A stretch of DNA of 24,000 nucleotides from Anaerovoracaceae bacterium (lineage in GTDB: Bacteria; Bacillota; Clostridia; Peptostreptococcales; Anaerovoracaceae). The notes below the pieces were generated by a model, which was given only the letters and a program-made list of their open reading frames with translations, ran no database searches and had not been told where the DNA came from. Numbering within the stretch: the first letter of the stretch is position 1; every line of letters starts with the position of its first letter. Shown here piece after piece: positions 2,537-23,028 of the stretch. Location of the stretch: the NCBI GenBank assembly GCA_045600065.1, contig JAZRXE010000055.1, forward strand, positions 26,873 to 50,872, given 5' to 3'. A program made the translations under genes and the position numbers.

Positions 2537-3523
2537 CTAAATCATCACCGATGCAGCAAGACAGAAGACTCCTGTGGCAAGCACGAACATCCTTACTACC
2601 TTGACCTCGGACCAGCCGCCCAGCTCAAAGTGATGATGGATGGGAGCCATCCTGAAAAATCTTCTGCCGTTTTGAGTCTTGAAAACATATACCTGTATTA
2701 TAACCGATAAGGCCTCGGCAACGTATACAAATCCGGCTATGGGAAGCAGCAGCTCGCAGCCTCCGGTGATGCCTATGGCAGCCAGGCAGCCGCCTATGGC
2801 CAAGGAGCCCGTATCGCCCATAAAGACCTTGGCAGGGTGACGGTTGTAGCACAGGAAGGCCAGACATCCCCCCATCAGCGCGGCAGCAAGATAAGAGGGT
2901 ATATCGAAGTCTGTCATATAGCTGTGGGATGCCGCAAAGCCGCCCAGCCACACAAAGAAAAGCGACACAGCCGAGCTGACGCTGCTGCAGAGCCCGTCGA
3001 GACCGTCATTGAGATTGACGGCGTTTGTCATTGCCAGCAGCACAAAGATCAGGAAGGGCACCGTGAATATGCCCAGATCCACATATATCCTGAACAGAGG
3101 CACGAACATCATATGTCCCCTGCTGTATTCATATACGGCAAGAACTGCAGCCACAATCAGCTGCAGTATTATCTTCTGTCTGGGGTTCAGACCCTCGTTC
3201 TGATGCTTTACCACCTTCAGGTAATCATCGGCAAAGCCCACCGCCCCGTAGGCAAGAGTCACGAAAACTATAATCGGCACGGTGTCGGGGCGTCCGCAGC
3301 GCATGTAGATCACAAAGCCTGAAATGCATACTGCTGCTATGATAGCCAGTCCCCCCATGGTCGGAGTTCCGGCTTTGGCAAGATGGGCCTGAGGTCCGTC
3401 CTCTCTTATGCTCTGTCCTGCCTTGAGCCTTCTCAAAAGAGGGAGCAGCATGCCTTCCAGCAGTACTCCCGATGCGAAGGCTGCGGCAAAGCTTACGAGG
3501 ATATTCTGTAGGGATCCGTTCAT
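2537..3523 (-). CDS. mraY: phospho-N-acetylmuramoyl-pentapeptide transferase
   Basis: 328-aa polytopic membrane protein with MraY hallmarks (GTPTMGG, ADDYLKV, NAVNLNDGLDGL, PIHHHFE). ATG at 3523 lies 3 nt after the murF stop. Confidence 0.95.
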   Translation of the reverse strand: MNGSLQNILVSFAAAFASGVLLEGMLLPLLRRLKAGQSIREDGPQAHLAKAGTPTMGGLAIIAAVCISGFVIYMRCGRPDTVPIIVFVTLAYGAVGFADDYLKVVKHQNEGLNPRQKIILQLIVAAVLAVYEYSRGHMMFVPLFRIYVDLGIFTVPFLIFVLLAMTNAVNLNDGLDGLCSSVSSAVSLFFVWLGGFAASHSYMTDFDIPSYLAAALMGGCLAFLCYNRHPAKVFMGDTGSLAIGGCLAAIGITGGCELLLPIAGFVYVAEALSVIIQVYVFKTQNGRRFFRMAPIHHHFELGGWSEVKVVRMFVLATGVFCLAASVMI

Positions 3524-4935: not shown

Positions 4936-6945
4936 TTATTTATAGTATAGTGTTATTGTTGTATTTTTATTCACCGTTTCCCCGCCCTTGGGATACTGAT
5001 CCACAACACTCAGGTCTGAATAGCTGTCCACCTCGGGCGCTATAACATACTTAAGATTTCTTCCTGCAAGCTTGCCTATGGCATCCTCCATGGCAAGACC
5101 GGTCACATTGGGGACCGTGGTCTGCTTGCTTTGAATAGCCGCAAGCTCTGCCTTGGTATAATTGGGCTGAATATCCATATACATAAGGATCTCCTGCATT
5201 ATTTCCTTGGCGATGGGAGCGGCGGTGCTGCTTCCGTATTTTCCGTTTCGGGGCGTATCCACCAGCACCAGAATGGCGAACTTGGGATCTTCGATGGGCG
5301 CAACGCCCAGGAAGGAGGCAATTACATCGGTCTTTGAATAGCTGCCGGCCTCGGGCTTATTGGCCGTGCCTGTCTTTCCGCCAATGTGATATCCGGGGAT
5401 TTTTGCGCTTCCTCCGCCGCCCTCGTTGACGACGGATTCCATGATCCCCAGCATCTCAGACGCAGTCTGGGCGGATACAGTTATGCTTTTGACCTCAGGC
5501 TCTGTCTCCTCTATGACATTCCCCTCAGGATCCAGCAGAGCCTTCATAAAATGCGGCTGCATCAGATAGCCTCCGTTTGCTATGGAGCATACTGCTGTAA
5601 GCATGCTCACCGGAGTGACGGCTATGCCCTGTCCGTAGGACATGGTTGCCAGCTCTACAGGGCCGGAGGAATAGATATCCTGAATGATATTGCTGCTTTC
5701 ACCCGGGTAATCTATGCCTGTCTTCTGAGTAAAACCGAAGGAATCGATGCCTGCAAAATAGTTTGTGAGACCCATGCGCTGCGACAGTGTTATCATAGTA
5801 ACATTGCAGGAGTTCTGAATTGCCTGGGCCAGGGTCTGGGTCCCGTGTGCCGAAGGATAGTTCCAGCAGTGCAGTGTCCAGTCTGCAACATCCATATAGC
5901 CCGGGCAGTAGAAGGTCTCATCCTTGTAGGTGACACCCAGATCAAGGGCTATGGAGGTAGTTATGAGCTTAAAGGTCGAGCCGGGCTCGTAGGTATCGGA
6001 AACGCAGAAGCATCTCCACATTCTGTTCCAGTAATCCACCTGCTGTGAGCTGCTCATCAGAGCGAAGGCCTCCGCATCCTCGGGCATGGGCTCTCTCGGG
6101 TTATTGGGGTCGAATTCGTTGGTCTGCGCCATGGCAAGGATCTCTGCGGTTTTGGGATCCATAACAAGGCATACCACTCTGTTGGATTCGTATTTTTCAC
6201 GGCCCTCGGCTATCTTCTGCTCCACAACATACTGTATGTTTTCGTCTATTGTAAGCTGAACCGTGCAGCCGTCCTCAGCGGAATAGTATTTGTTGGTTCC
6301 GAAGGAAAGACTGTTGGAGCGTATATCCTTGCTCATTATCCAGCGGCCGTTGGTACCGGAAAGATAACGGTTGTAGAAAAGCTCTATGCCCGTAAGGCCC
6401 ACATTATCGTCCGTGGTGGTGCCAAGCAGCTGAGACGCAAAGGATTTAAGAGGGTAATACCTCTTGGCGTCCTCCACTATTTCTATACCCGTAAGCCTTG
6501 CCGCCCTCAGCGCATCGGCTGTTTCGTAATCAACGTTTTTAGCAAGCTTTGTCAGCTTTTTATCCGACGTGATGGTGGTGAACACGCTGTTGTATTCCAT
6601 GCCCAAGATAGCCGAAAGGCTGGTCGCCTCTGCATATATGTTGTACGCCTGCTCATCGGCATTCTTGCCGTTGTTTTTCACATCGTCGGGGCGTACCCAG
6701 ACCGTATTTGTGGTCGCGCTTATGGCAAGCTGACTGCCGTTGCGGTCCACTATGGAGCCTCTGACTGCGGTCACGACCTTGTCTGATGTCTGCTGCTTTA
6801 CCGCCTTCTGGGAATAGCTTTCAGCCATTATTACCTGGTGATAGCCCATTCTCATGGCAAGCCCGGCAAACAGAAAGCAGATCATAAGAAAGGCTATCAG
6901 TATCCTTTTTTTATTCAGATTTGTGGTCTTGCTGTTTCTGCTCAT
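4936..6945 (-). CDS. class B penicillin-binding protein (FtsI/PBP2B/SpoVD-like transpeptidase) with one C-terminal PASTA domain
   Basis: N-terminal TM anchor; transpeptidase motifs STFK (GSTFKLIT), SxN (NSCN) and KTGT; C-terminal PASTA-like segment (VPNVTGL...ITLYYK). The ORF is open to a TTG at 6969. The ATG at 6945 (MSRNSK...) is chosen as the likelier start, so the start is uncertain. Confidence 0.88.
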   Translation of the reverse strand: MSRNSKTTNLNKKRILIAFLMICFLFAGLAMRMGYHQVIMAESYSQKAVKQQTSDKVVTAVRGSIVDRNGSQLAISATTNTVWVRPDDVKNNGKNADEQAYNIYAEATSLSAILGMEYNSVFTTITSDKKLTKLAKNVDYETADALRAARLTGIEIVEDAKRYYPLKSFASQLLGTTTDDNVGLTGIELFYNRYLSGTNGRWIMSKDIRSNSLSFGTNKYYSAEDGCTVQLTIDENIQYVVEQKIAEGREKYESNRVVCLVMDPKTAEILAMAQTNEFDPNNPREPMPEDAEAFALMSSSQQVDYWNRMWRCFCVSDTYEPGSTFKLITTSIALDLGVTYKDETFYCPGYMDVADWTLHCWNYPSAHGTQTLAQAIQNSCNVTMITLSQRMGLTNYFAGIDSFGFTQKTGIDYPGESSNIIQDIYSSGPVELATMSYGQGIAVTPVSMLTAVCSIANGGYLMQPHFMKALLDPEGNVIEETEPEVKSITVSAQTASEMLGIMESVVNEGGGGSAKIPGYHIGGKTGTANKPEAGSYSKTDVIASFLGVAPIEDPKFAILVLVDTPRNGKYGSSTAAPIAKEIMQEILMYMDIQPNYTKAELAAIQSKQTTVPNVTGLAMEDAIGKLAGRNLKYVIAPEVDSYSDLSVVDQYPKGGETVNKNTTITLYYK

Positions 6946-12211: not shown

Positions 12212-12838
12212 TTGACCAAAGCAGAAAGACTTGAAAAACAGCAGCTGCGCCTTCAGCAGATGCTCACATACGAGAAAAGCCTTTGGGCAGAAGGCAAAAA
12301 GCTGGTAGCAGGCGTAGACGAGGTGGGCCGCGGCCCTCTTGCAGGCCCTGTGATAGCAGCTGCGGTGATACTGCCCGAGGGGTTTTCCCTGCTTGGGGTA
12401 GACGATTCCAAAAAGCTCTCTCCAAAGCAAAGAGACAGGCTTTACGACCAGATCCTTGAAGCCTGTATTTCTTATTCCACAGGCCGTCGGGAGCCTGCGG
12501 ACATAGACCGCATCAACATCCTGAACGCCACCAGGGAAGCCATGCTGGATGCAGTTTTGAGCCTTTCCCAAAAGCCTGATCACGTGCTGATAGACGCAGT
12601 AAAGCTGGATGCTTTGAGCATACCCTACACGGCAATAATCAAGGGAGACGCAAAAAGCGTGTCCATAGCCGCCGCATCCATAGTTGCCAAGGTGACAAGA
12701 GACCGAGAAATGGAGCGCATGGCCGTGGTCTATCCGGGCTATGCCTTTGAATCAAATAAGGGCTACGGCACCAAAGCCCATTACGAGGGACTGGCCAAGC
12801 TGGGCCCCTGCCCAATACACAGGAAAACTTTTCTTTAG
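12212..12838 (+). CDS. rnhB: ribonuclease HII
   Basis: 208 aa with a TTG start. RNase HII motifs VAGVDEVGRGPLAGPV, DDSKKLS, ASIVAKVTRD and GYG. Confidence 0.92.
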   Translation: MTKAERLEKQQLRLQQMLTYEKSLWAEGKKLVAGVDEVGRGPLAGPVIAAAVILPEGFSLLGVDDSKKLSPKQRDRLYDQILEACISYSTGRREPADIDRINILNATREAMLDAVLSLSQKPDHVLIDAVKLDALSIPYTAIIKGDAKSVSIAAASIVAKVTRDREMERMAVVYPGYAFESNKGYGTKAHYEGLAKLGPCPIHRKTFL

Positions 12839-13006: not shown

Positions 13007-13834
13007 ATGATAGATACTTCATTGCTTTTTAAGGATCCTGAACCCGGCACTTACGAGGCCGGCATGCAGTTCGACGGTTTTACCATCAAGGCCTGCGACG
13101 GCAGCACCCTGCTTGCCAGAATGCTCAGCGCCGGAAGAAAAAAGGACGAGCTCTGCCCCGCAGTGCTTCTGCTTCACGGATTCCCGGGCAACGAGCAGAA
13201 CATGGACATGGCACAGAGCCTGCGCAGAGCGGGCTTTACCGTGTTCACGCTTCACTACCGGGGCAACTGGGGCAGCGGCGGAGAGTACCGCCTGGCCCAC
13301 CTGCCCGAAGACGCGGAGAGCATGCTGAAATATATGAAGGCCGGGCACCAAGCCCTGGGCATAGACCCTGAGCGCATCTTCCTGCTGGGCCACAGCATGG
13401 GCGGCTTTACCGCCTTCGAGCTGCTGAGCCGCCGGGTGTCCATTGCCGGCGCAGTGCTGATGGCGCCCTGCGATATCGAATACATGTACACGGAAGACCG
13501 CGCCGCCTTCAGCGCCCTGGTGGATAATACCGAAGACTATTTCCGCCTGGATTCCAGCCGGATCTTCTACGAAGAATGCGCCGCCCACACAGACGACTGG
13601 CGCTTCACCGCTTTTGCGCAGAAGGCAGACCCCTCCGTTCCCCTGCTCTTTGTTGGCGGCACGGAGGATGTCACCTGCGATCCGGAGCATCACATAGCCC
13701 CTGCCCGGGACATACTGCTGCAGCGCGGCGCCGATGCCGAATGCTTGATTCTGGAAGACGGTCACTGCTTCGACAGCCATCGCTGCCGGCTGATCACCGC
13801 CATAGCGGAGTGGCTGGCAAAGAAAGTACAGTAG
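13007..13834 (+). CDS. alpha/beta-fold hydrolase (serine hydrolase, unknown substrate)
   Basis: 275 aa with SD AGGGAGA upstream. Oxyanion region LLLHGFPG and nucleophile elbow GHSMGG. Candidate Asp (GGTEDVTCD) and His (EDGHCF) could complete a triad. Confidence 0.8.
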   Translation: MIDTSLLFKDPEPGTYEAGMQFDGFTIKACDGSTLLARMLSAGRKKDELCPAVLLLHGFPGNEQNMDMAQSLRRAGFTVFTLHYRGNWGSGGEYRLAHLPEDAESMLKYMKAGHQALGIDPERIFLLGHSMGGFTAFELLSRRVSIAGAVLMAPCDIEYMYTEDRAAFSALVDNTEDYFRLDSSRIFYEECAAHTDDWRFTAFAQKADPSVPLLFVGGTEDVTCDPEHHIAPARDILLQRGADAECLILEDGHCFDSHRCRLITAIAEWLAKKVQ

Positions 13835-13850
13835 ACAATTTTACAACCCC

Positions 13851-13889
13851 AAAAAGCAGACCCGGAGCACAGGCTTCGGGTCTTTGTGT
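13851..13889. terminator. bidirectional intrinsic terminator (hydrolase / hsdR convergent)
   Basis: 9-bp stem agacccgga (13858-13866) / ttcgggtct (13875-13883), with one G-U pair and an 8-nt loop. It is flanked by aaaaa (13851-13855), which reads as a U-tract for the minus-strand hsdR transcript. On the plus side it is followed by ttgtgt, a weaker tract. Confidence 0.7.
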
Positions 13890-13942: not shown

Positions 13943-16900
13943 TCACGCCGCAACGGCATTTGCGTTAACACGGTCGATAGCTTTCCGGATACCCATCCAG
14001 ACAGACAGATCCGTAAAGATCTCAACAATGCTGCCCATATCCGTAAACGGCGATTCCTGAAGCACCGAAAGATCTTTCATAAGACCGTTATGGACTATGT
14101 ATTCGACAATCTGGTTCACAAAATAGATCTGCCTGCTGTCGAGGGATACATCGTTCAGATACTCCGCGAATGCCTCTTTAGCCGCCGTCATGTCAAGACC
14201 AACGATCTCCCGGACAAATTCACCAAGCGGTTTTTGTCCGTATTCAGCCTCGTAGTCCTGCTTTGTACCGACTTCGCTCCACAGGATCTCTTCAAGAACC
14301 TTAATATCTTCTGCCGTCAGCGGGATATTACTTCTCAGTTTCGCAATGACCTCATTATCAAGGTGCTGGCGAACATAGAACTCCGCCTTTGCCTTGTAAT
14401 TCTTCAAATCATCGTTTTCAAGCTCTGAGTCATTCCAGTCCATCGAAAGGATCTCATCATCGAAATCCGTGTCATAGCGTAGTTTCTTAACTGGAATATA
14501 CTTGATCAGATCGCGCAGATTCACGCGGATATATTCAAAATCGCTGATGCCCGCAGTATCAACATAATCGGTATGCAGGATCCTGTTGATCAAATCTGCC
14601 TGGGCCATGATCTCTGGAATGTTGGCGACAGAAGCAATGCCGGAAACTTTTTTGAACAGATCAGACCGTGCGCGGCTATACTTTTTGCCTGCAAGGAAAG
14701 CCAGTTCGATTCCGTACATAAGGGCGTCAAAGCGCAGAGCCTTTGCGTCATCGTCTTCCGGAAGGATCAGCGGTGCCAGCTCCTGCCCCATCAGCAAAGT
14801 ATCTTCATAGGTGAGCGCTGTATAGTTATCCGGATTGGAATACAAGTCGACATATTTCAAATGCTGCCGCACGGCAAAGTTCTCTTTGTTCAGTTCCCGC
14901 ACCTTCCCGACCATTTCTTCCACAAGCGATTTTCGGAACGCAATCAGGTCGTTCGTCTGATAAGAAATATCCTGCAGCTTGTATGCGATCTGGGCCTTGA
15001 GCTGAAATATGGCACCCTGCAGAGCGATCATATTCGCAGTAGCCTTGCCTTTGTTCATTCGGAAAAATTCGAAGTTTCCGCAGAAATCAAAGATATAGAA
15101 TTTCTCTTTGTCTTTGCCGTCGAGCAGGCCGGGGCAGAGGCGCGTTCCGCGGCCGATCATCTGCCAAAACTTGGCCTTGCTCATGACTTTCTTAAAGAAG
15201 ACGAGATTCAGCACTTCCGGCACATCGATACCGGTATCCAGCATATCAACGGAGATCGCGATCTGCGGCAGTTTCCCCGGATCGGAGAACTCATCGATGG
15301 CGCTCTGTGCATAAGTCATATAATTGTCGATCACTTTTGCAAAGCCGGGCAGATGCGGGTATTCCTTGTTGAAGATCTCCAGGATCTTCTCCGCATGGGC
15401 ATGGTTCTTTGCAAAGATAATAGTCTTGCCGATCTTGTTTCCGTAATCGATCTTGATACCTTCGGTCATCAGGATATTCAGGACCTGTCGGATAGTATCC
15501 TCGTTAAAGATCCACTCGTTAAGAGCCGACGAAGCGATACTCTCCGGAAGCTCGCCGTTTTCATCCTCAAAAGTATCCTCGTAGATCTGCTTGTCTTCCT
15601 CGGAGAGATCATCATATACAATGCCCTGCTGGATGAACTTCAAAACCGTTTCCACAGAGACGAAGTCCACCAGATAACCGTCCTTGACAGCCTGATCAAG
15701 CTCGTATCCGTAAGTCGGGACACCGTTTTCGAGCTCAAAGATCTCGTAGGTATTCTTGTCGATCTCATCTTTCGGGGTCGCGGTAAGTCCGACAAGCGGC
15801 GCATCGAAGTAATTGAAGATATCCTGGTATTTGTTATAGATGGAGCGATGCGCTTCATCGCAAATCACAAGGACAAAATGTCCGCTGGTAAAAAGTTTCC
15901 CTTCATCGTCATGAACAGAGTCAATGACATTGAACATGGTCTGATATGTGGAAAAAACGCAGTGCGCCGTATAATTGTCTTTTTCCTCACAGAGATTGGT
16001 GACAGACAGATCAGGCAGCAGATTCACAAAGTTCCGCTTGGCCTGAGTAACAAGACTGTTGCGATCAGCCAGGAACAGAATATTTTTCACCCAGCCGTGC
16101 TGAAGGAGTACATCGCAGAGCGCAATGACCGTTCTGGTCTTGCCGGAACCGGTAGCCATGACCAGGAGCGCTTTCCGGCGATTCCGGCGGTCGAATGCAT
16201 CGCAGACCGCCTTGATCGCTGCCTCCTGATAGTATCGCCCGACTATGTTTTTGTTTATACTGACATTCTTCAGATTCGTTCTCAGAGTCTGAAGGTTAAA
16301 CTTTTTTTCGAGATCCCGCTTGGAGTAAATATTCGCACATTTTCTCTCGGGATACTGATTATCGATGATACGTGTTTCGAATCCGTTCGTCAGGAAAATG
16401 ACCGGCCTTCTATGCATATATTTTTCTAACAGATCCGCATAAAGCTTTGCCTGCTGACGCCCTTTTGCAACATCCACGCAAGTGCGCTTCGCTTCGATCA
16501 CGGCAAGCGGACGATGATCATCCCCGTAGAGGACATAATCTGCATAGCCCACGCCGGATGCATTGGGCATTCCGTTCAGTTCGACTTCGTTAAACCAGTT
16601 TACGCCTTCCTTCCAACCGGCATCGGCAAGCATGGTATCGATATAGATCTTGCGGGTCTTGTATTCCGACAGATCCAGCGGCTTGGGCACGTAGGTCTGC
16701 TGCTGCTCCGCACGGCGCTTCGTAAGCTCTTCCTTGAGCGCCGCATTCTCTTCCATCAGCTTTTTCAGGTCTACCTCAGTCTGGGCGAAAACGGCTGCAG
16801 CTGGCTCTTTATGCTGCTTCAGAAGCTCGCGATCGAAGCTTCCTTCGGCATAACTGCTGCCATAGCAGTAGGCAACAAAATCCAGGAATACATACAGGTT

Positions 16901-17236
16901 TTCCAGGCAAAGCTCTGCCTGTTCTTCCGTGATTTTCTTTCCGCCATGCGCAGCATTATTGCCTACCTTGCGAATAAAATCCATTCGCCGCCAGATATCC
17001 GTACCGATGATATCGCGAAAATCCTCGTCGTTCATCAGGCTGACAAGGGTATCCTGATAAGGCATGACAAGAGAGCTGTCCACAGAATACATCCATTTGA
17101 CAGCGAACTCCATGGCCCTGCGGCAGTTCATAACGGAGGAATCCACATCCATATGCAGAATGTTTTCTGCCGCTATAGCCACATCGGCAAACGATGCAAA
17201 CCGCGCATCTGATTTCAGGAAATCAAAGTTGGTCAT
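13943..17236 (-). CDS. hsdR: Type I restriction enzyme R subunit with N-terminal DUF4145-like domain and EcoEI-R-C-like C-terminal domain
   Basis: PD-(D/E)xK nuclease (GYADYVLY...AVIEAKR). SF2 helicase motifs I MATGSGKT, II DEAH, III GLTATP and VI QMIGRGTR. The ORF track starts at a TTG (17251). The ATG at 17236 (MTNFDFLK...) with GAGGAG 8 nt upstream is preferred. Confidence 0.93.
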   Translation of the reverse strand: MTNFDFLKSDARFASFADVAIAAENILHMDVDSSVMNCRRAMEFAVKWMYSVDSSLVMPYQDTLVSLMNDEDFRDIIGTDIWRRMDFIRKVGNNAAHGGKKITEEQAELCLENLYVFLDFVAYCYGSSYAEGSFDRELLKQHKEPAAAVFAQTEVDLKKLMEENAALKEELTKRRAEQQQTYVPKPLDLSEYKTRKIYIDTMLADAGWKEGVNWFNEVELNGMPNASGVGYADYVLYGDDHRPLAVIEAKRTCVDVAKGRQQAKLYADLLEKYMHRRPVIFLTNGFETRIIDNQYPERKCANIYSKRDLEKKFNLQTLRTNLKNVSINKNIVGRYYQEAAIKAVCDAFDRRNRRKALLVMATGSGKTRTVIALCDVLLQHGWVKNILFLADRNSLVTQAKRNFVNLLPDLSVTNLCEEKDNYTAHCVFSTYQTMFNVIDSVHDDEGKLFTSGHFVLVICDEAHRSIYNKYQDIFNYFDAPLVGLTATPKDEIDKNTYEIFELENGVPTYGYELDQAVKDGYLVDFVSVETVLKFIQQGIVYDDLSEEDKQIYEDTFEDENGELPESIASSALNEWIFNEDTIRQVLNILMTEGIKIDYGNKIGKTIIFAKNHAHAEKILEIFNKEYPHLPGFAKVIDNYMTYAQSAIDEFSDPGKLPQIAISVDMLDTGIDVPEVLNLVFFKKVMSKAKFWQMIGRGTRLCPGLLDGKDKEKFYIFDFCGNFEFFRMNKGKATANMIALQGAIFQLKAQIAYKLQDISYQTNDLIAFRKSLVEEMVGKVRELNKENFAVRQHLKYVDLYSNPDNYTALTYEDTLLMGQELAPLILPEDDDAKALRFDALMYGIELAFLAGKKYSRARSDLFKKVSGIASVANIPEIMAQADLINRILHTDYVDTAGISDFEYIRVNLRDLIKYIPVKKLRYDTDFDDEILSMDWNDSELENDDLKNYKAKAEFYVRQHLDNEVIAKLRSNIPLTAEDIKVLEEILWSEVGTKQDYEAEYGQKPLGEFVREIVGLDMTAAKEAFAEYLNDVSLDSRQIYFVNQIVEYIVHNGLMKDLSVLQESPFTDMGSIVEIFTDLSVWMGIRKAIDRVNANAVAA

Positions 17237-17265: not shown

Positions 17266-18345
17266 CTATATGTGTGAAATTTCGGGTGTATTTTTCCAAA
17301 ACATTATTACATATTTTGATTTGTCGAGTTGCTTAACAAAATCGGCAAATTGGTTCTGCAATTCGATTGGCGGTATATAAATAGGCATTTCTGCAATTTG
17401 CCCAGACGATACTCGCGCTCTTGTTTGTCCATGAATCATACTCGAAGCTAAGAGTAGCGTTGTTGGACAATTTATATACTGGCAGACAAAGATATTATCC
17501 AAAATATCAGGATTAGGAATGTAGTGGACGCAGTCCGCCTTATTAACAGCTATTCCAACATATTCCGGAATAATGCAAGCCCTGAGATTAGGTTCTCCAA
17601 GTGTTCCAATAACAATTTCGCCGGATTTGCAAGTGTATTTCTTTAACCGTTCATAGTGTTCGGCTGGTATAAATGATTTGTCATTATCAATAAATTGCCC
17701 AACCCCGATATTGCCAAGACGGATAACTCTTATACCTTCATCTGAATAATGTTCTGATTTTAGGTTTGAACCAAACGGGCCATCACTCAATCGAATCGAA
17801 GCCTCTTTGAACGTCTTGGTTTTCCACCCATTAGGATTGGAAAATGTGTCACCAAACATCTCGACAAATCGGGCTTTGATGAGATCGTCCAGTTTTTGGA
17901 GTTCCTGTTGGCGGGCACTAATAATACTCTCGACTTTTCCAAGGATGGTGACGATCTCTTGTTGTTTTTCGAGCAAGTCCAAATTGAACGTCTCATTCTG
18001 ATAATCCTTGAAATAAATATGTGGAATCGTCGCACCCGTAAAATATTTTTCCAAGTGCATATATCGAACAACATAACAAAGATACTCTGGCAGAACATTC
18101 TCTTTTGGTAAAAGATACTGCATGGTGCCGATTACAGAGGATTTTGCAGGATGTAGCGTTGTTCTGCCAATACCTGCACCGTCCTTTACAACTGCCACGT
18201 AAGGCTTATCTTGATGATAAAAATCAACATTACCAATATAACCTGCAGCCCCATAAATTGGGTAATTTCCATTTTTGTCTGCAACATCAGATTGCTTTAG
18301 GCTCGACGAGCCTTTTTCACAAACATCTCCAAGTTTAACTTTCAT
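17266..18345 (-). CDS. hsdS: Type I restriction-modification specificity subunit
   Basis: 359 aa with two variable target-recognition regions. They are separated by a central conserved helix (LLEKQQEIVTILGKVESIISARQQELQKLDDLIKARFVEMFG). A second conserved element, PPIELQNQFADFVKQLDKSK, lies near the C-terminus. The gene is located between hsdM and hsdR. Confidence 0.88.
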   Translation of the reverse strand: MKVKLGDVCEKGSSSLKQSDVADKNGNYPIYGAAGYIGNVDFYHQDKPYVAVVKDGAGIGRTTLHPAKSSVIGTMQYLLPKENVLPEYLCYVVRYMHLEKYFTGATIPHIYFKDYQNETFNLDLLEKQQEIVTILGKVESIISARQQELQKLDDLIKARFVEMFGDTFSNPNGWKTKTFKEASIRLSDGPFGSNLKSEHYSDEGIRVIRLGNIGVGQFIDNDKSFIPAEHYERLKKYTCKSGEIVIGTLGEPNLRACIIPEYVGIAVNKADCVHYIPNPDILDNIFVCQYINCPTTLLLASSMIHGQTRARVSSGQIAEMPIYIPPIELQNQFADFVKQLDKSKYVIMFWKNTPEISHI

Positions 18346-18370: not shown

Positions 18371-19873
18371 TTATACCCCAAGCATATTACGCAGCGCTTC
18401 CATTTCTTCGCAGATCTGCATTTCAAGCTCGTCAAGCTCCGCCATGATCTCTGTCGAACTCGGGTACTCGACAGGTACGTATTCAGTCTTTTTATATTTG
18501 TTGATGGAAAGATCGTAATCATTGGCTGCGATCTCCTCCTTGGGAACAAGGAACGATTTTTCCGTGCGCTTGCGATCCTTCTCGGCTTCAAGGTCTCTGA
18601 AACGGACGATGATGTCAGGGATATCATTCTCCGCAACAGGAGTCCGTTTATCGTCCAGAGACAGGCCGTCCGCCTGCATATCGTAAAACCACACATTATC
18701 CGTGCCGCCATGTCCGGTTTTCGTAAAGATCAGAACGGCTGTGGAAACACCGGCATACGGCTTGAATACGCCAGAGGGCATGGAGATCCCCGCCTCCAGA
18801 CGGTTGCCGTCAATGATCTCTTTGCGTATCGCTTTATGAGCCGCCGAAGATCCGAACAGCACGCCATCCGGAACGATGCAGGCACATCGGCCGCCGACGC
18901 GCAGCATGCGCAGGAAGAGTGCAAGGAACAAAAGCTCCGTCTTTTTTGTCTTGCAGACCTTGAGCAGATCCGCCGAGACCGTATCGGCATCCAGGCTGCC
19001 TTTGAAGGGTGGATTAGCGAGGATCAGACTATATTTGTCCTTGTCCGGATTCTGATCGGAAAGGCTGTCGCGGTATTCGATATAAGGGTTGTCCACACCG
19101 TGGGTCATCATGTTCATGGCACCGATACGAAGCATGGTTCGGTCCATATCGTAGCCGAAGAACATGTGGTTCATATAATGATCCTTCTTCTGCTTGTTGA
19201 AGAAGATCTCTTCTTTGTGTTTTTCCTTCAGATATTCTCCGGCAGCGACCAGGAATCCGGATGTGCCGCAGGCTGGATCGCAGATCACTTCGTCCGCTTT
19301 GGGATCCATCAGTTCGACCATCATCCGGATAATGTGACGAGGTGTGCGGAACTGTCCGTTTACTCCGGCAGAAGCGATTTTTGCAAGAAGGTATTCGTAA
19401 ACATCTCCGCGTACATCCGCCGACTGATTTCCTGTCATCATCTGATAGATCTCATCCAGAGAGTCGACGACTTTTGAAAGCATCAGCGGCGTAGGCAGCT
19501 TAAAGATCGCATCGTCCATATACTTAGAGTAAGCGCTGTTCTTATCGACGTGCAGATTTTTGATAAAGGGGAATACCCATTCCTGCACCACAGTGTACAT
19601 CTTGCCCGCGGGAAAATCATGAAATACGCTCCACTTGAGTTGCTGTCCGTCGATCTTTCGATCTCCGATCTGCACTTCATCGGCAAAAACGCTCGTATAG
19701 GACAGGCCCAGCATGGCGGCCTCCTTTGCACGGACGTTATCGGAATCGTCCAGATCGCGGATGAACATCAAATAGGTGATCTGCTCGATCACATCCAATG
19801 GATTCGTGAGCCCGCCGGTCCAGAATATTTCCCAAAGACTGTCGATTTTGTTTTTCAATTCGCCTGTGATCAT
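18371..19873 (-). CDS. hsdM: Type I restriction-modification N6-adenine DNA methyltransferase subunit
   Basis: 500 aa. HsdM N-terminal domain (LWEIFWTGGLTNPLDVIEQITYLMFIR), SAM motif I (ICDPACGTSGFL) and catalytic motif IV (LANPPFKGS). ATG lies 2 nt after the fic stop, with a GGAG SD inside the fic 3' end. Confidence 0.95.
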   Translation of the reverse strand: MITGELKNKIDSLWEIFWTGGLTNPLDVIEQITYLMFIRDLDDSDNVRAKEAAMLGLSYTSVFADEVQIGDRKIDGQQLKWSVFHDFPAGKMYTVVQEWVFPFIKNLHVDKNSAYSKYMDDAIFKLPTPLMLSKVVDSLDEIYQMMTGNQSADVRGDVYEYLLAKIASAGVNGQFRTPRHIIRMMVELMDPKADEVICDPACGTSGFLVAAGEYLKEKHKEEIFFNKQKKDHYMNHMFFGYDMDRTMLRIGAMNMMTHGVDNPYIEYRDSLSDQNPDKDKYSLILANPPFKGSLDADTVSADLLKVCKTKKTELLFLALFLRMLRVGGRCACIVPDGVLFGSSAAHKAIRKEIIDGNRLEAGISMPSGVFKPYAGVSTAVLIFTKTGHGGTDNVWFYDMQADGLSLDDKRTPVAENDIPDIIVRFRDLEAEKDRKRTEKSFLVPKEEIAANDYDLSINKYKKTEYVPVEYPSSTEIMAELDELEMQICEEMEALRNMLGV

Positions 19874-19875
19874 GA

Positions 19876-20931
19876 TTATTTATCTCCATTCCATACGTAA
19901 GAAGTATAGCGTCCGCCGCCGATCTTCAGAATATCTTCGCTCTTCAGCAGATCTGCCAGAGCTCGCTGCACGGTCACCTGGCTGATATCCGGACACTGCC
20001 CCATGACCTCCGCCCTGGTGATCTTGCCCAGGTGCCCTTTGATGATCTCTCGTACCCGATCCGGCTTTGATACGCCTTTGGCTGCCAGCAGTATTGCTCT
20101 GTCCTCGAAATCGCGATACGCTGCCAGGATCACACCGAGCATGTACGTGACAAAAGAACTGTAATCGTTTGTGCCCTCATGCCATCCGTCCGAGCTGTCC
20201 AGCAGAGCCTCGTAATAGGAAGCCTTCGTGTCGGAGATCAGTTTTTCGATACTGATATACTTACCGACGTAATACCCGTTTCTGTACAGCAGAAGCAGCG
20301 TTAGCAGACGGCTCATTCTGCCGTTGCCGTCGTTGAAGGGATGAATACACAGAAAATCCAGGATGAACATCGGGATCAGGATCAGGGGATCCATTTCAAG
20401 AGTATTGACAGCCTCGCTGAAAGCGTCGCAGAGACAGTTCATCGTTTCCGGCGTTTCCCATGCTGGCACGGGATTAAAGCGTACCGTTTTCGTTCCGTCG
20501 GCATGCTCTTCGGCGATAACGTTATCTGAATTCTTATAATTTCCGCCGATGGCTTTTCCGGTGAATTTATAGAGATCTCTGTGCAGCTGCAGGATGTGGT
20601 TCGGACGCGGGAGGATATATTCGTAGTTTTCGTGAACAGTGGTCAGCACGTCACGATAACCTGCTATCTCTTTTTCTCCGCGGTTTTTCGGAATCGTTTT
20701 TTCCCGAACGATCTTTTTGAGACGATCATCGGTGGTAATGATGCCTTCGATCCTGTTGGAGGCGTCCGTGCTCTGGATCTTCGCAATCTCCAGCAATTCG
20801 GCCAGGGCATCTTCTTTCGCCTCGATCAACGGATTTTGCCGTCCTTTGTATTCGTGGATCTGAGTCAGATAGTTCACAACGTCCGGAGTAAGGAGCTTGC
20901 TGTACTCAGTTTTGAAGTCGAATGTTCTCAT
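19876..20931 (-). CDS. class II Fic-domain protein (putative AMPylase) with Fic_N inhibitory helix and C-terminal winged-helix domain
   Basis: Complete Fic active-site motif HPFNDGNGRMSR, matching HxFx(D/E)GNGRxxR (20308-20343). The N-terminal intramolecular inhibitory motif SNRIEG matches (S/T)xxxE(G/N) (20743-20760). A C-terminal wHTH-like segment is present (ITRAEVMGQCPDISQVTVQRALADLLKSEDILKIGGGRYTSY). Confidence 0.9.
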   Translation of the reverse strand: MRTFDFKTEYSKLLTPDVVNYLTQIHEYKGRQNPLIEAKEDALAELLEIAKIQSTDASNRIEGIITTDDRLKKIVREKTIPKNRGEKEIAGYRDVLTTVHENYEYILPRPNHILQLHRDLYKFTGKAIGGNYKNSDNVIAEEHADGTKTVRFNPVPAWETPETMNCLCDAFSEAVNTLEMDPLILIPMFILDFLCIHPFNDGNGRMSRLLTLLLLYRNGYYVGKYISIEKLISDTKASYYEALLDSSDGWHEGTNDYSSFVTYMLGVILAAYRDFEDRAILLAAKGVSKPDRVREIIKGHLGKITRAEVMGQCPDISQVTVQRALADLLKSEDILKIGGGRYTSYVWNGDK

Positions 20932-20978
20932 TAATTTATACTCATTTGATTTTTAATTTGATCATTATTGTATTTTTG

Positions 20979-20990
20979 ATGCAATTGCAT
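20979..20990. promoter_or_regulatory. perfect 12-bp palindrome ATGCAATTGCAT overlapping the -10/+1 of the fic-hsd promoter (candidate operator)
   Basis: atgcaattgcat at 20979-20990 is its own reverse complement. Its last two bases are the last two bases of the -10 hexamer on the gene strand. Confidence 0.5.
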
Positions 20991-21017
20991 ATTAACACCA
21001 ATGTAGTCACAAATCAA
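20989..21017 (-). promoter_or_regulatory. candidate sigma-A promoter of the fic-hsdMSR operon (TTGATT-17 nt-TAATAT with TGn extended -10)
   Basis: Minus strand reads TTGATT (21017-21012), the 17-nt spacer tgtgactacattggtgt, then TAATAT (20994-20989). The spacer ends in TGT, giving an extended -10. The predicted leader to the fic ATG (20931) is about 50 nt. Confidence 0.6.
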
Positions 21018-21138
21018 GATAATTTAGTCATTTTGTGCCGCAATGATCAAATTAAAGTTTCGCATTGCTTTATTGATCGAATCCCTACACTGCTGCAATA
21101 CGATTTCTCGCCCATGCCGGCACCACTGAAATACGAAT

Positions 21139-21194
21139 AAACGCCTGAACTCGCTCCGAAACATAACAGTTCGGCATCGGTCTCAGGCGTTTTT
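21139..21194. terminator. bidirectional hairpin terminator after the polymerase/YolD-like operon
   Basis: Perfect 10-bp outer stem aaacgcctga (21139-21148) / tcaggcgttt (21183-21192), plus an inner 5-bp stem ccgaa (21156-21160) / ttcgg (21170-21174). On the plus strand it is followed by ttttt (21190-21194). On the minus strand it is followed by TTTATTCGTATTT. It starts immediately after the TGA of the 100-aa ORF. Confidence 0.7.
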
Positions 21195-21496
21195 CATTGT
21201 ACTTCAGGATAAGGTTCTCCATACCCTTCATCCAGGTAACTCTGTTCGGTCTCCTTGCCGGCGGTGTCGATGGCATCGCCGTAGCCGGAGAGCGCGGCAA
21301 AGGGAGAAAACTGGCCGGCGCGGTCGTGCATGCTCATGTGGGAGCGCTTAGCCGAAACATGGTGGGGCAGATCGACGATGTCTTCGTACGGGAACACCGA
21401 GGCTGCGGCTTGCCCGGTGTCCCGAGCCTCCAAAGCCGTCTGTCCGGAGTTTTTCCGATCTTTGTTTTCTGTTGGCATTTCAAGTTTTTCCGTCAT
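21194..21496 (-). CDS. short YolD-like protein (putative accessory factor of the upstream Y-family polymerase)
   Basis: 100 aa. Its ATG overlaps the polymerase stop (ATGA at 21493-21496). The central motif MSMHDRAGQFSPFAALSGYGDAI resembles, from memory, the conserved core of small ORFs that follow UmuC/UvrX-like polymerases in Firmicutes (YolD-like family). Confidence 0.55.
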   Translation of the reverse strand: MTEKLEMPTENKDRKNSGQTALEARDTGQAAASVFPYEDIVDLPHHVSAKRSHMSMHDRAGQFSPFAALSGYGDAIDTAGKETEQSYLDEGYGEPYPEVQ

Positions 21497-23028
21497 TTTC
21501 TGTGTCCGCCTATTGTGCCGTTGCGCTGTATTGCGGTAGCGCCCTCCTGCAGATCCATGCCCATGACAATGGCATTCTTGCCAAAGCGCTTGCGTATCTC
21601 CAGTATGGTCTGCTGCTGTCTGCGCTCTGCCTCGGTGTCGGCCTTCTGCGCTTCTTCTTTCTGTTTCTGCTGATCGGCAGCTGCCTGCAGAGAGAAGATA
21701 TCCAGCTGCTCTTCGATCTCTTCCGCAGGGATGTCCTCCTCCGCAATCACATGGCTGGCAATCACATACATGCGGCGTACCAGCAGCGAGGGATCAACTA
21801 TGCGGTCGAAAAGCTCCATGGTCTTTTCGGTTATGAGCTTTGTAGAGGACGTATATTTACCCAGATTTATGCTGCCGTGGGCCATCTTGGGCATGCGCCT
21901 GCCGTAGGCATCCACGCTGACCGGGCCCTTGTATTTAGCCGCCCGTGCAGGATCCGTCAGATTCAGGGTATCGTAGCCGATGTCAAGCACCATCTGATCC
22001 GACACCAGGCCCTTGTCCACCAGCTCCAGCACAAGAGCATCCGTCATCTCGCGAACCACCAGCTTGGCAAGATCGAATCCATAAGGATCCTGAAGCACCT
22101 GACCGGAGCTGATACTGTTGCTTTCGGGCTTGTATGCCTTGATATCGGCAATGGTGCAGGGCTCCCAGCCCCAGGCGTGGTCTATCAGAAGCTCAGCGTT
22201 TATGCCGAACAGGCTGTAAAGCAGATCCTCGTTGAGAAAATCTCCGGGACCGCCGAGAGAACATCTGGCAACATCCCCCATGGTATACATGCCGTGAGCC
22301 TCCAGCTTTCTGGCATAACCCCTGCCTATGCGCCAGAAGTCGGTAAGAGGCCTGTGATCCCATAGCTTGCGGCGGTAGCTCATCTCGTCAAGAACAGCTA
22401 TGCGCACGCCGTTTTCATCTGCGGGGATATGCTTTGCCTCCACATCCATTGCTATCTTGGCAAGATACATATTGGGGCCCACGCCTGCGGTAGCGGTAAT
22501 GCCCGTGCGGCTCAGAACCTCAAGGATAAGCTTTCTTGCAAACTGCTCGGCACTCAGCCCGTAGGTCCGCAGATAATCCGTGGCGTCTATGAAGACCTCG
22601 TCTATGGAATAGACATGAACATCCTCTGCAGACACATACTGCAGATAGGTCTGATAGATGCGAGTGCTGACCTCCATATACCTGGCCATGCGCGGCGCGG
22701 CAACCAGATAATCTACTGCCAGCGAGGGGTCTGCTTCAAGCTCCGGATACTTCCAGGACTTGCCGCTGAGCCTGCCTGAAGGGGAATCCAATGCCCTTCG
22801 GGCGTTCACCTCCCTGAGCTTTTGGATAACCTCAAAAAGCCTGGCGCGTCCCGGTATCCCAAAGGATTTCAGGGACGGAGACACAGCCAGGCATATGGTC
22901 TTCTCCGTGCGGCTCAGATCTGCCACCACCAGATTCGTGGTCAGCGGATCCAGGCCCCGGTCAGAACACTCCACCGAAGCGTAGAATGATTTAAGGTCTA
23001 TGGCGATATAGCTTCTTTCCTGAGGCAA
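21493..23028 (-). CDS. Y-family (UmuC/UvrX/DinB-like) translesion DNA polymerase
   Basis: 511 aa with a TTG start and AAAGGAA SD. Catalytic motifs YIAIDLKSFYASVEC and YSIDEVFIDAT are present. After an acidic/Gln-Lys-rich linker comes a C-terminal tail, ...IRKRFGKNAIVMGMDLQEGATAIQRNGTIGGHRK, typical of the Firmicute branch. Confidence 0.88.
   Translation of the reverse strand: MPQERSYIAIDLKSFYASVECSDRGLDPLTTNLVVADLSRTEKTICLAVSPSLKSFGIPGRARLFEVIQKLREVNARRALDSPSGRLSGKSWKYPELEADPSLAVDYLVAAPRMARYMEVSTRIYQTYLQYVSAEDVHVYSIDEVFIDATDYLRTYGLSAEQFARKLILEVLSRTGITATAGVGPNMYLAKIAMDVEAKHIPADENGVRIAVLDEMSYRRKLWDHRPLTDFWRIGRGYARKLEAHGMYTMGDVARCSLGGPGDFLNEDLLYSLFGINAELLIDHAWGWEPCTIADIKAYKPESNSISSGQVLQDPYGFDLAKLVVREMTDALVLELVDKGLVSDQMVLDIGYDTLNLTDPARAAKYKGPVSVDAYGRRMPKMAHGSINLGKYTSSTKLITEKTMELFDRIVDPSLLVRRMYVIASHVIAEEDIPAEEIEEQLDIFSLQAAADQQKQKEEAQKADTEAERRQQQTILEIRKRFGKNAIVMGMDLQEGATAIQRNGTIGGHRK

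Follow-up and report, generated by a model that had tools for sequence, protein, structure and literature searches.

A Fic protein with a winged helix-turn-helix domain that probably controls transcription of a Type I restriction-modification operon

Why does the gene of an apparently auto-inhibited Fic AMPylase stand at the head of a Type I restriction-modification (R-M) operon, only two nucleotides (nt) away from the methyltransferase gene? The question is raised by a 24,000-nt stretch of DNA from an Anaerovoracaceae bacterium (GenBank assembly GCA_045600065.1, contig JAZRXE010000055.1, positions 26,873 to 50,872), referred to here in its full length as the window, in which fic, encoding a protein of 351 amino acids (aa), immediately precedes hsdM, hsdS and hsdR on the minus strand. 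We propose that Fic is the likely transcriptional controller of this hsd operon, since, in a comparison of about 150 related loci, a palindrome conserved at the fic promoter co-varies with the recognition helix of the winged helix-turn-helix (wHTH) at the C-terminus of the protein. A preliminary description of the locus had missed this palindrome and its covariation with the helix. The explanation that we consider probable, with appreciable room for doubt, is that the window Fic is a regulator-toxin resembling CccR and SoFic, and that its autoregulated promoter would drive the whole Type I R-M operon.

The predicted operator upstream of fic and the recognition helix

The elements on which this proposal depends are located as follows.

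21021-21053, minus strand: predicted operator O1, the palindrome AATTTGATCA-N13-TGACTAAATT, ending 3 nt 5' of the -35 box
20989-21017, minus strand: predicted sigma-70-type promoter, with -35 TTGATT at 21017-21012, a 17-nt spacer and -10 TAATAT at 20994-20989
20955-20986, minus strand: predicted operator O2, AATTGCATCA-N12-TGATCAAATT, starting 2 nt after the -10 box and lying over the expected transcription start
19876-20931, minus strand: fic, class II Fic-wHTH protein of 351 aa (open reading frame (ORF) list, Pfam, PDB match, AlphaFold2 (AF2) model)
20760-20743, minus strand: inhibitory motif SNRIEG, residues 58-63, with E62 (from the sequence)
20343-20308, minus strand: catalytic motif HPFNDGNGRMSR, residues 197-208, with H197 (from the sequence)
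about 20067-19891, minus strand: wHTH, residues ~289-347, with residues 318-330 as the recognition helix

Similarity between loci starts about 125 nt 5' of fic, and the palindrome AATTnnnTCA-N12/13-TGAnnnAATT is found upstream of fic in 68 of 72 loci, with 82 matches in 14.4 kb of upstream DNA versus 7 in the remaining 899 kb of these loci, an enrichment of about 730-fold. In 64 loci the right arm of the palindrome lies 3-6 nt from a -35 box that agrees with TTGACA at five or more of the six positions in 61 of them, the spacer measures 17 nt in 55, and the -10 box agrees with TATAAT at five or more positions in 46; a second palindrome, starting 2 nt after the -10 box, is present in 21-35 of these loci depending on stringency. 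The single match of a promoter scan, TTAATA-N17-TACAAT, was rejected because the other pair of -35 and -10 boxes fits the consensus across the 64 loci. The palindrome stays with fic in loci without hsdM, and ATCA-N12-TGAT palindromes are present at two solitary plasmid homologs (loci L081 and L082); of the other two among the four plasmid homologs compared, L083 yielded no such palindrome and L084 carries a different repeat. Farther from the gene, locus L067 contains a perfect AATTATATCA-N12-TGATATAATT palindrome at about 2999-3030, 5 kb upstream of fic.

The center of the half-site varies by locus (TAA, TTA, TAG, GCA, ACA, ATA), with both arms changing together. In several independent lineages, the variable bases of the predicted operator change in step with residues 318, 319 and 322, near the beginning of the Fic recognition helix. 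For example, half-site G7 pairs with T319 in four or more separate lineages and half-site C6 pairs with E322 in three or more, the lineages having been counted by eye on one neighbor-joining tree of Fic residues 1-290 only, which excludes the wHTH. The metagenome set behaves similarly, as G7 in both arms is accompanied by T319 or K319 in eight of eight cases, and T319 occurs once among the 29 cases without G7. High-entropy columns dominated the raw mutual information of operator bases with protein columns, and explicit tables and lineages were used in its stead. If this helix code is true, a V319T exchange would move the preference from AATTTAATCA to AATTTAGTCA, and Q322E would favor GCA or ACA half-sites, which gives a testable operator and recognition-helix code for the Fic-wHTH family.

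The protein that carries this helix had been presented in the preliminary description as a class II Fic AMPylase with an intact catalytic motif, an intramolecular inhibitory motif and a C-terminal wHTH-like domain, and each of these assignments is now backed by further evidence. Pfam Fic (PF02661) matches the product with 57.6 bits against a cutoff of 24, HPFNDGNGRMSR conforms to the class II pattern HxFx(D/E)GNGRxxR, and SNRIEG supplies the (S/T)xxxE(G/N) motif on a helix N-terminal to the Fic core of the same chain. In 80-81 of 81 homologs the catalytic and inhibitory residues do not vary, E62 being kept in 80, and from such strict conservation the window AMPylase may be functional but latent. 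The closest solved structure, PDB 8UQU, aligns with residues 22-343 (E 1.6e-82) and contains the same motifs. The AF2 model builds the wHTH from helices 289-299, 306-312 and 318-330 and a hairpin at 334-347, with a predicted local distance difference test (pLDDT) score of 73-87 over this block; its input alignment was shallow (75-90% identity), so that the wHTH and the overall Fic fold are its usable parts, and a Foldseek search with it matched Fic relatives, adding only confirmation.

The domain order had also been equated with the Fic_N-Fic-wHTH architecture of SoFic, and of these parts the Fic core and the wHTH are borne out; the Pfam search detected neither Fic_N (PF13784) nor SoFic-like_C (PF21248) in the window Fic and, apart from PF02661, gave only a sub-threshold match to PF22168. 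The kinship with SoFic is remote. The broad PADLOC SoFic model matches the window Fic over its full length (1.3e-34), whereas the NCBIfam SoFic equivalog, with its cutoff of 550, is matched with 56 bits and PDB 9TC4, SoFic proper, with 37 bits. Judged by these scores, the window Fic is a distant relative of SoFic proper, whose own relatives carry all of the Fic_N, Fic and SoFic-like_C domains.

The four-gene operon and the linkage of fic to hsdM

The remainder of the operon and its boundaries comprise the following features.

19871-19887, minus strand: fic/hsdM junction, with GGAG at 19887-19884, the stop codon TAA at 19878-19876, the dinucleotide TC and the ATG at 19873-19871
18371-19873, minus strand: hsdM, Type I N6-methyladenine (m6A) methyltransferase of 500 aa, NPPF at residue 287 (Pfam; PADLOC MTase_I, 5e-182)
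17266-18345, minus strand: hsdS, specificity subunit of 359 aa with two Methylase_S target-recognition stretches (Pfam, PADLOC)
13943-17236, minus strand: hsdR, 1097 aa from the ATG at 17236, with DUF4145, HSDR_N, ResIII/helicase and EcoEI_R_C (Pfam, PADLOC)
21124-21184, minus strand: hairpin with a long stem and a T-rich tail (-26.6 kcal/mol, z = -1.97, a modest value)
13858-13883, both strands: bidirectional terminator-like hairpin just 3' of the hsdR stop, with an 11-bp stem containing 7 GC pairs (plus strand) and a minus-strand counterpart

The gene order agrees with the first reading of the locus, in which fic was the first, translationally coupled cistron. The gap to hsdM is 2 nt, and the Shine-Dalgarno (SD) sequence of hsdM, GGAG, lies within the fic coding sequence, 10 nt 5' of the ATG; hsdS follows hsdM after 25 nt and hsdR follows hsdS after 29 nt, counted from the ATG at 17236, a start now backed by GAGGAG 8 nt 5' of it. 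All three Hsd subunits are matched by both Pfam and PADLOC and their catalytic motifs are intact, including GSGKT, DEAH and the D...EAK nuclease motif of HsdR. That no clear terminator interrupts the operon was likewise borne out, as hairpins of the terminator type within it are weak and occur at chance level (11 vs 6.8 +/- 2.9 in shuffles). The hairpin at 13858-13883, common to hsdR and the convergent alpha/beta-hydrolase gene, marks the operon end, and the one at 21124-21184 probably ends transcription of the gene upstream, which would insulate the fic promoter. By its layout, fic-hsdM-hsdS-hsdR is one conserved four-gene operon with fic in the promoter-proximal position, and fic is accordingly the first cistron of four and not the stand-alone gene of a SoFic system. 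An AS1-like antitoxin gene after fic was considered and rejected, the 2-nt junction leaving no space for it.

Homologous operons elsewhere have unrelated flanks and their similarity begins at the operator, so the block from the operator to hsdR appears to be a transferable unit. The flanks in the window are of the housekeeping type, with a DinB/ImpB-family polymerase, RNase HII and an alpha/beta hydrolase (21493-23028 on the minus strand; 12212-12838 and 13007-13834 on the plus strand). HsdR contains an N-terminal DUF4145 at residues 28-118 (16883-17155, minus strand; Pfam 1.3e-14) ahead of the usual modules, and its N-terminus also matches the PADLOC candidate PDC-M16A.

The window Fic could in principle be an independent neighbor, a stand-alone SoFic-type gene sharing a defense island and an accidental transcript with the hsd genes, so that co-expression alone would connect them, and the behavior of the linkage across genomes bears directly on this. 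The window Fic family has more than 8,000 strong protein matches. A scan with one genome per species gave 80 fic loci among the matches listed, at 62-89% identity, mostly from Clostridia with some from Erysipelotrichaceae, Spirochaetia and the actinobacterium Alloscardovia; 73 of them were informative, having enough downstream DNA, and in 63 of these hsdM lies directly 3' of fic on the same strand. In the reciprocal test, which covered 72 metagenome loci of close HsdM relatives among the matches listed (79-87% identity), fic lies directly 5' of hsdM in 65. A lack of enrichment next to hsd genes had been named in the preliminary description as a finding that would speak against its proposal, and the enrichment is present in both directions. 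The junction between the two genes measures -4 to +6 nt in 47 of 58 full-length loci, with the SD sequence in the last fic codons, and the distances among Fic proteins correlate with those among HsdM proteins (Mantel r = 0.57, p = 0.001). The fic-hsd operon is common in gut and rumen Firmicutes.

The HsdM loci without a window-type fic are also informative. Five of these seven contain in its place a non-homologous short Fic of 204 aa, whose likeness to the window Fic is confined to the catalytic motif, followed by a separate 90-aa gene for a MarR-type wHTH protein, which begins 2 nt later in L098 and is separated from the Fic gene by an insertion in L093; hsdM then lies 51 nt 3' of the wHTH gene. 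Because a non-homologous Fic and wHTH pair occupies the same position in these loci, the function of Fic plus wHTH, and not merely the gene, is suggested to be selected upstream of hsdM. This alternative head of hsdMSR, located at 1622-3001 in L098 and also present in L092, L093, L105, L123 and L133, consists of an NTase_sub_bind (HEPN-type) gene, the short Fic, the wHTH and hsdM. Independence of fic from the operon is quite unlikely on these grounds, since the reciprocal linkage of 86-90%, the conserved junction with its SD sequence inside fic and the recruitment of an analogous split pair to the same position argue against mere co-location, as does the lack of a promoter-like gap 5' of hsdM. 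It draws some support from the solitary copies that lie among defense genes, from the more distant homologs, which are solitary, from the SoFic-proper relatives, of which one of the three examined is hsd-linked, and convergently so, and from the treatment of SoFic as a standalone system in defensome surveys (PMC10924106).

The solitary copies make up 10 of the 73 informative loci of the clade (about 14%), and the four annotated plasmid homologs examined, at 40-49% identity, are all without hsd genes. In L032 (9079-12803) a solitary fic is found beside a HipA-like kinase, an AAA_21 ATPase and RloB, and in L059 (2457-6610) beside a Schlafen-group-3 helicase and AbiH. L069 retains a 25-aa remnant of the HsdM N-terminus after fic (6087-6161), a scar of decay, and in L008 (3476-5757) the hsdM start is kept after fic and followed by two inserted ORFs, with another Type I system, its HsdM 43% identical, 2.3 kb 3' of it.

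Such copies matter for the proposal made in the preliminary description, that Fic is kept latent by the R-M complex in the manner of PrrC. According to this explanation, also suggested by Ronin, Fic would be inactive while bound to HsdM, HsdS or HsdR, and would be freed by a phage anti-restriction protein (Ocr, ArdA or Stp-like) to act as an abortive-infection toxin. A toxin-type gene does lie inside a Type I hsd locus here, as prrC does, and its linkage to hsdM is conserved, tight and reciprocal; relatives of Fic are growth-arresting toxins (PMC12249575), with EF-Tu as a target, and for toxins tied to Type I systems and set off by anti-restriction proteins, PrrC and Ronin are precedents (bioRxiv 10.1101/2023.04.06.535777). 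However, Fic has its own conserved intramolecular inhibitor and its own operator, the operator is retained in the loci of the clade without hsd genes, and fic sits at the promoter end of the operon and not between hsdS and hsdR. The linkage is also not obligatory as it is for prrC, which is reported to be always hsd-linked (PMC3458546). Since Fic is self-inhibited, has its own operator and occurs without hsd genes, HsdMSR would not be needed to keep it silent, and the claim of latency imposed by the R-M complex finds no support here and is somewhat weakened. We regard such a guard as unlikely, although it is compatible with Fic acting as an autoregulator.

Some loci of the comparison contain further genes of the same families. 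L030 (1982-3118), L036 (5368-6231) and L041 (6226-7356) each have a second, distant Fic ORF (E 1e-9 to 1e-10), which lies a few kb 5' of the main fic. The hsdS regions of L003, L036, L046, L067 and L077 (about 10.6-15.6 kb) contain two HsdS-like ORFs each, and many loci have a gap of 1-1.7 kb between hsdS and hsdR; the double ORFs and the gaps suggest extra inserted genes or phase-variable hsdS cassettes.

A proposed mode of action and its weak points

If Fic is the controller of the operon, a Fic dimer would bind the predicted operators O1 and O2, repress its own promoter and in this way set the level both of itself and of the whole Type I system. Repression is favored over activation because the promoter is near consensus, O2 lies over the expected transcription start and Fic is homologous to the repressor CccR. 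De-inhibited Fic might also arrest growth, by analogy with SoFic, which targets EF-Tu, and with CccR, which targets FtsZ, and the hsd operon might thereby gain a toxin arm of an abortive-infection or addiction-like kind.

Several points weigh against this proposal. In this clade, binding to DNA, the sign of the regulation, co-transcription, catalytic activity and toxicity are predictions. O2 is missing in about half of the loci, and O1 lies upstream of the -35 box, a placement that is also used by activators, while hsdM may be served by a promoter inside fic. Shared ancestry partly confounds the way in which operator and helix vary together, and there is a clear exception in L025, where G7 occurs with V319. 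The AF2 model is weak overall, with a mean pLDDT of 64. Finally, the co-divergence of Fic and HsdM (Spearman 0.32) is lower than that of HsdM and HsdR (0.75), from which it follows that the partners have sometimes been exchanged.

Fic might act on the R-M enzyme itself, reversibly AMPylating HsdR, HsdM or HsdS and thus alleviating restriction after DNA damage or while the operon becomes established in a new host. Such alleviation is a requirement of Type I systems, with a mechanism known only for some families. Translational coupling would allow stoichiometric expression with HsdM, and among wHTH-Fic relatives AMPylation and deAMPylation both occur, with DNA binding or dimerization as the switch. 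Nevertheless, such post-translational regulation is very unlikely, since the known targets of the relatives (EF-Tu, FtsZ and histone H3) are not R-M subunits, and the solitary copies imply a target independent of HsdMSR. More far-reaching is an integrated controller, in which Fic throttles the operon through the operators, a reversible AMPylase that stops translation or division or modifies an Hsd subunit is gated by the DNA-bound or dimeric state of Fic, and vacancy of the operators or an attack on the R-M enzyme (in a new host, or by phage DNA mimics) switches the cell from restriction to growth arrest; we offer this combination as a speculation with a small chance of being right.

For the simpler proposal of an autoregulated operon, some consequences can already be named. 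Defense catalogs would split the locus into a SoFic system and a Type I R-M system, and the evidence presented here points to one regulated operon. It hints at a control of Type I systems outside the ClpXP paradigm, and offers a tractable model in which Fic genes of hsd loci, the "M-linked ORFs", can be viewed as regulators, back-up toxins or both.

Relation to known systems

Judging by its gene name, the SoFic gene of Shewanella oneidensis, SO_4266, presumably lies between hsd genes. The abbreviation "mlo" denotes the M-linked ORFs of Campylobacter hsd loci (PMC5183652), and the SoFic gene has been named mloA (bioRxiv 10.64898/2026.07.09.737422). Histophilus somni 2336 has the order hsdR-abi-hsdS-fic-hsdM (PMC3339403), and a Fic/DOC coding sequence between core hsd genes has been listed (PMC9881135). 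Fic genes within Type I loci are therefore already on record at the annotation level, without functional comment, and the association itself will not surprise specialists. No description of a Fic-wHTH protein as a promoter-proximal, operator-binding controller of a Type I operon was found in the searchable literature, the coverage of which is incomplete; within that literature, neither the operator code nor the implied control of a Type I system's transcription by a toxin-regulator had been described.

PDB 7XUX, a 380-aa Fic-domain protein whose size and release date suggest that it is CccR, shows low similarity to the window Fic (E 4.7e-5). CccR of Yersinia pseudotuberculosis, a Fic-HTH protein of class II, acts as a dimer in repressing its own promoter and has FtsZ as its AMPylation target, and its DNase footprint covers AGATAATCAT-N26-ATGATAATCT near the -35 and -10 boxes (PMC9755527). 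The two proteins have nearly the same inhibitory motif (SARIEG in CccR, SNRIEG in the window Fic) and the same order of a Fic core and a C-terminal DNA-binding domain, which in the window Fic is the wHTH indicated by AF2 and by the 8UQU alignment up to residue 343. Both have an inverted repeat at their own -35 and -10 boxes, and the ATCAT/ATGAT core of the CccR site resembles the window half-site. In contrast to the window Fic, CccR is an effector secreted by the type VI secretion system for which no association with R-M genes is reported, the spacing of its half-sites is 26 bp instead of 12-13 bp, and the window promoter would drive hsdMSR as well.

SoFic, or MloA, of S. oneidensis (SO_4266) resembles the window Fic in its N-terminal helix, Fic core, wHTH and class II auto-inhibition. 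Dimeric SoFic binds 100 bp 5' of its own start codon and AMPylates switch I of EF-Tu (bioRxiv 10.64898/2026.07.09.737422), and in Coxiella Fic2, DNA binding switches between AMPylation and deAMPylation (PMC10628234). SoFic differs from the window Fic in sequence, as seen in the roughly 37 bits that it scores and in the lack of Fic_N and SoFic-like_C matches in the latter, and in context, since it is listed among anti-phage defense systems as a single gene and the EcSofic gene is followed by one for a 47-aa antitoxin, AS1, whereas the window has hsdM 2 nt away. The closest structure, 8UQU, is a structural-genomics entry for a Fic family protein of Bordetella bronchiseptica, for which no functional paper was found.

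PrrC of EcoprrI and Ronin share with the window Fic the tie of a toxin gene to hsdM or hsdS, which makes a layered defense plausible, but they are unrelated toxins, an anticodon nuclease and a 61-aa membrane peptide, and they are silenced by HsdMS, whereas the window Fic would be self-inhibited, has its own predicted operator and also occurs alone. The C proteins of Type II systems offer a parallel on the side of regulation, being DNA-binding proteins encoded by the first coupled cistron with palindromic boxes at the promoter. They are small proteins of the Xre-type HTH family that precede the R gene and activate, then repress, a weak promoter; the wHTH of the window, in contrast, is fused to an enzyme, precedes hsdM and is served by a near-consensus promoter. 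Should the integrated controller outlined above prove true, the window Fic would be the first toxin-regulator "C-protein" for a Type I system, linking the control of R-M with abortive infection.

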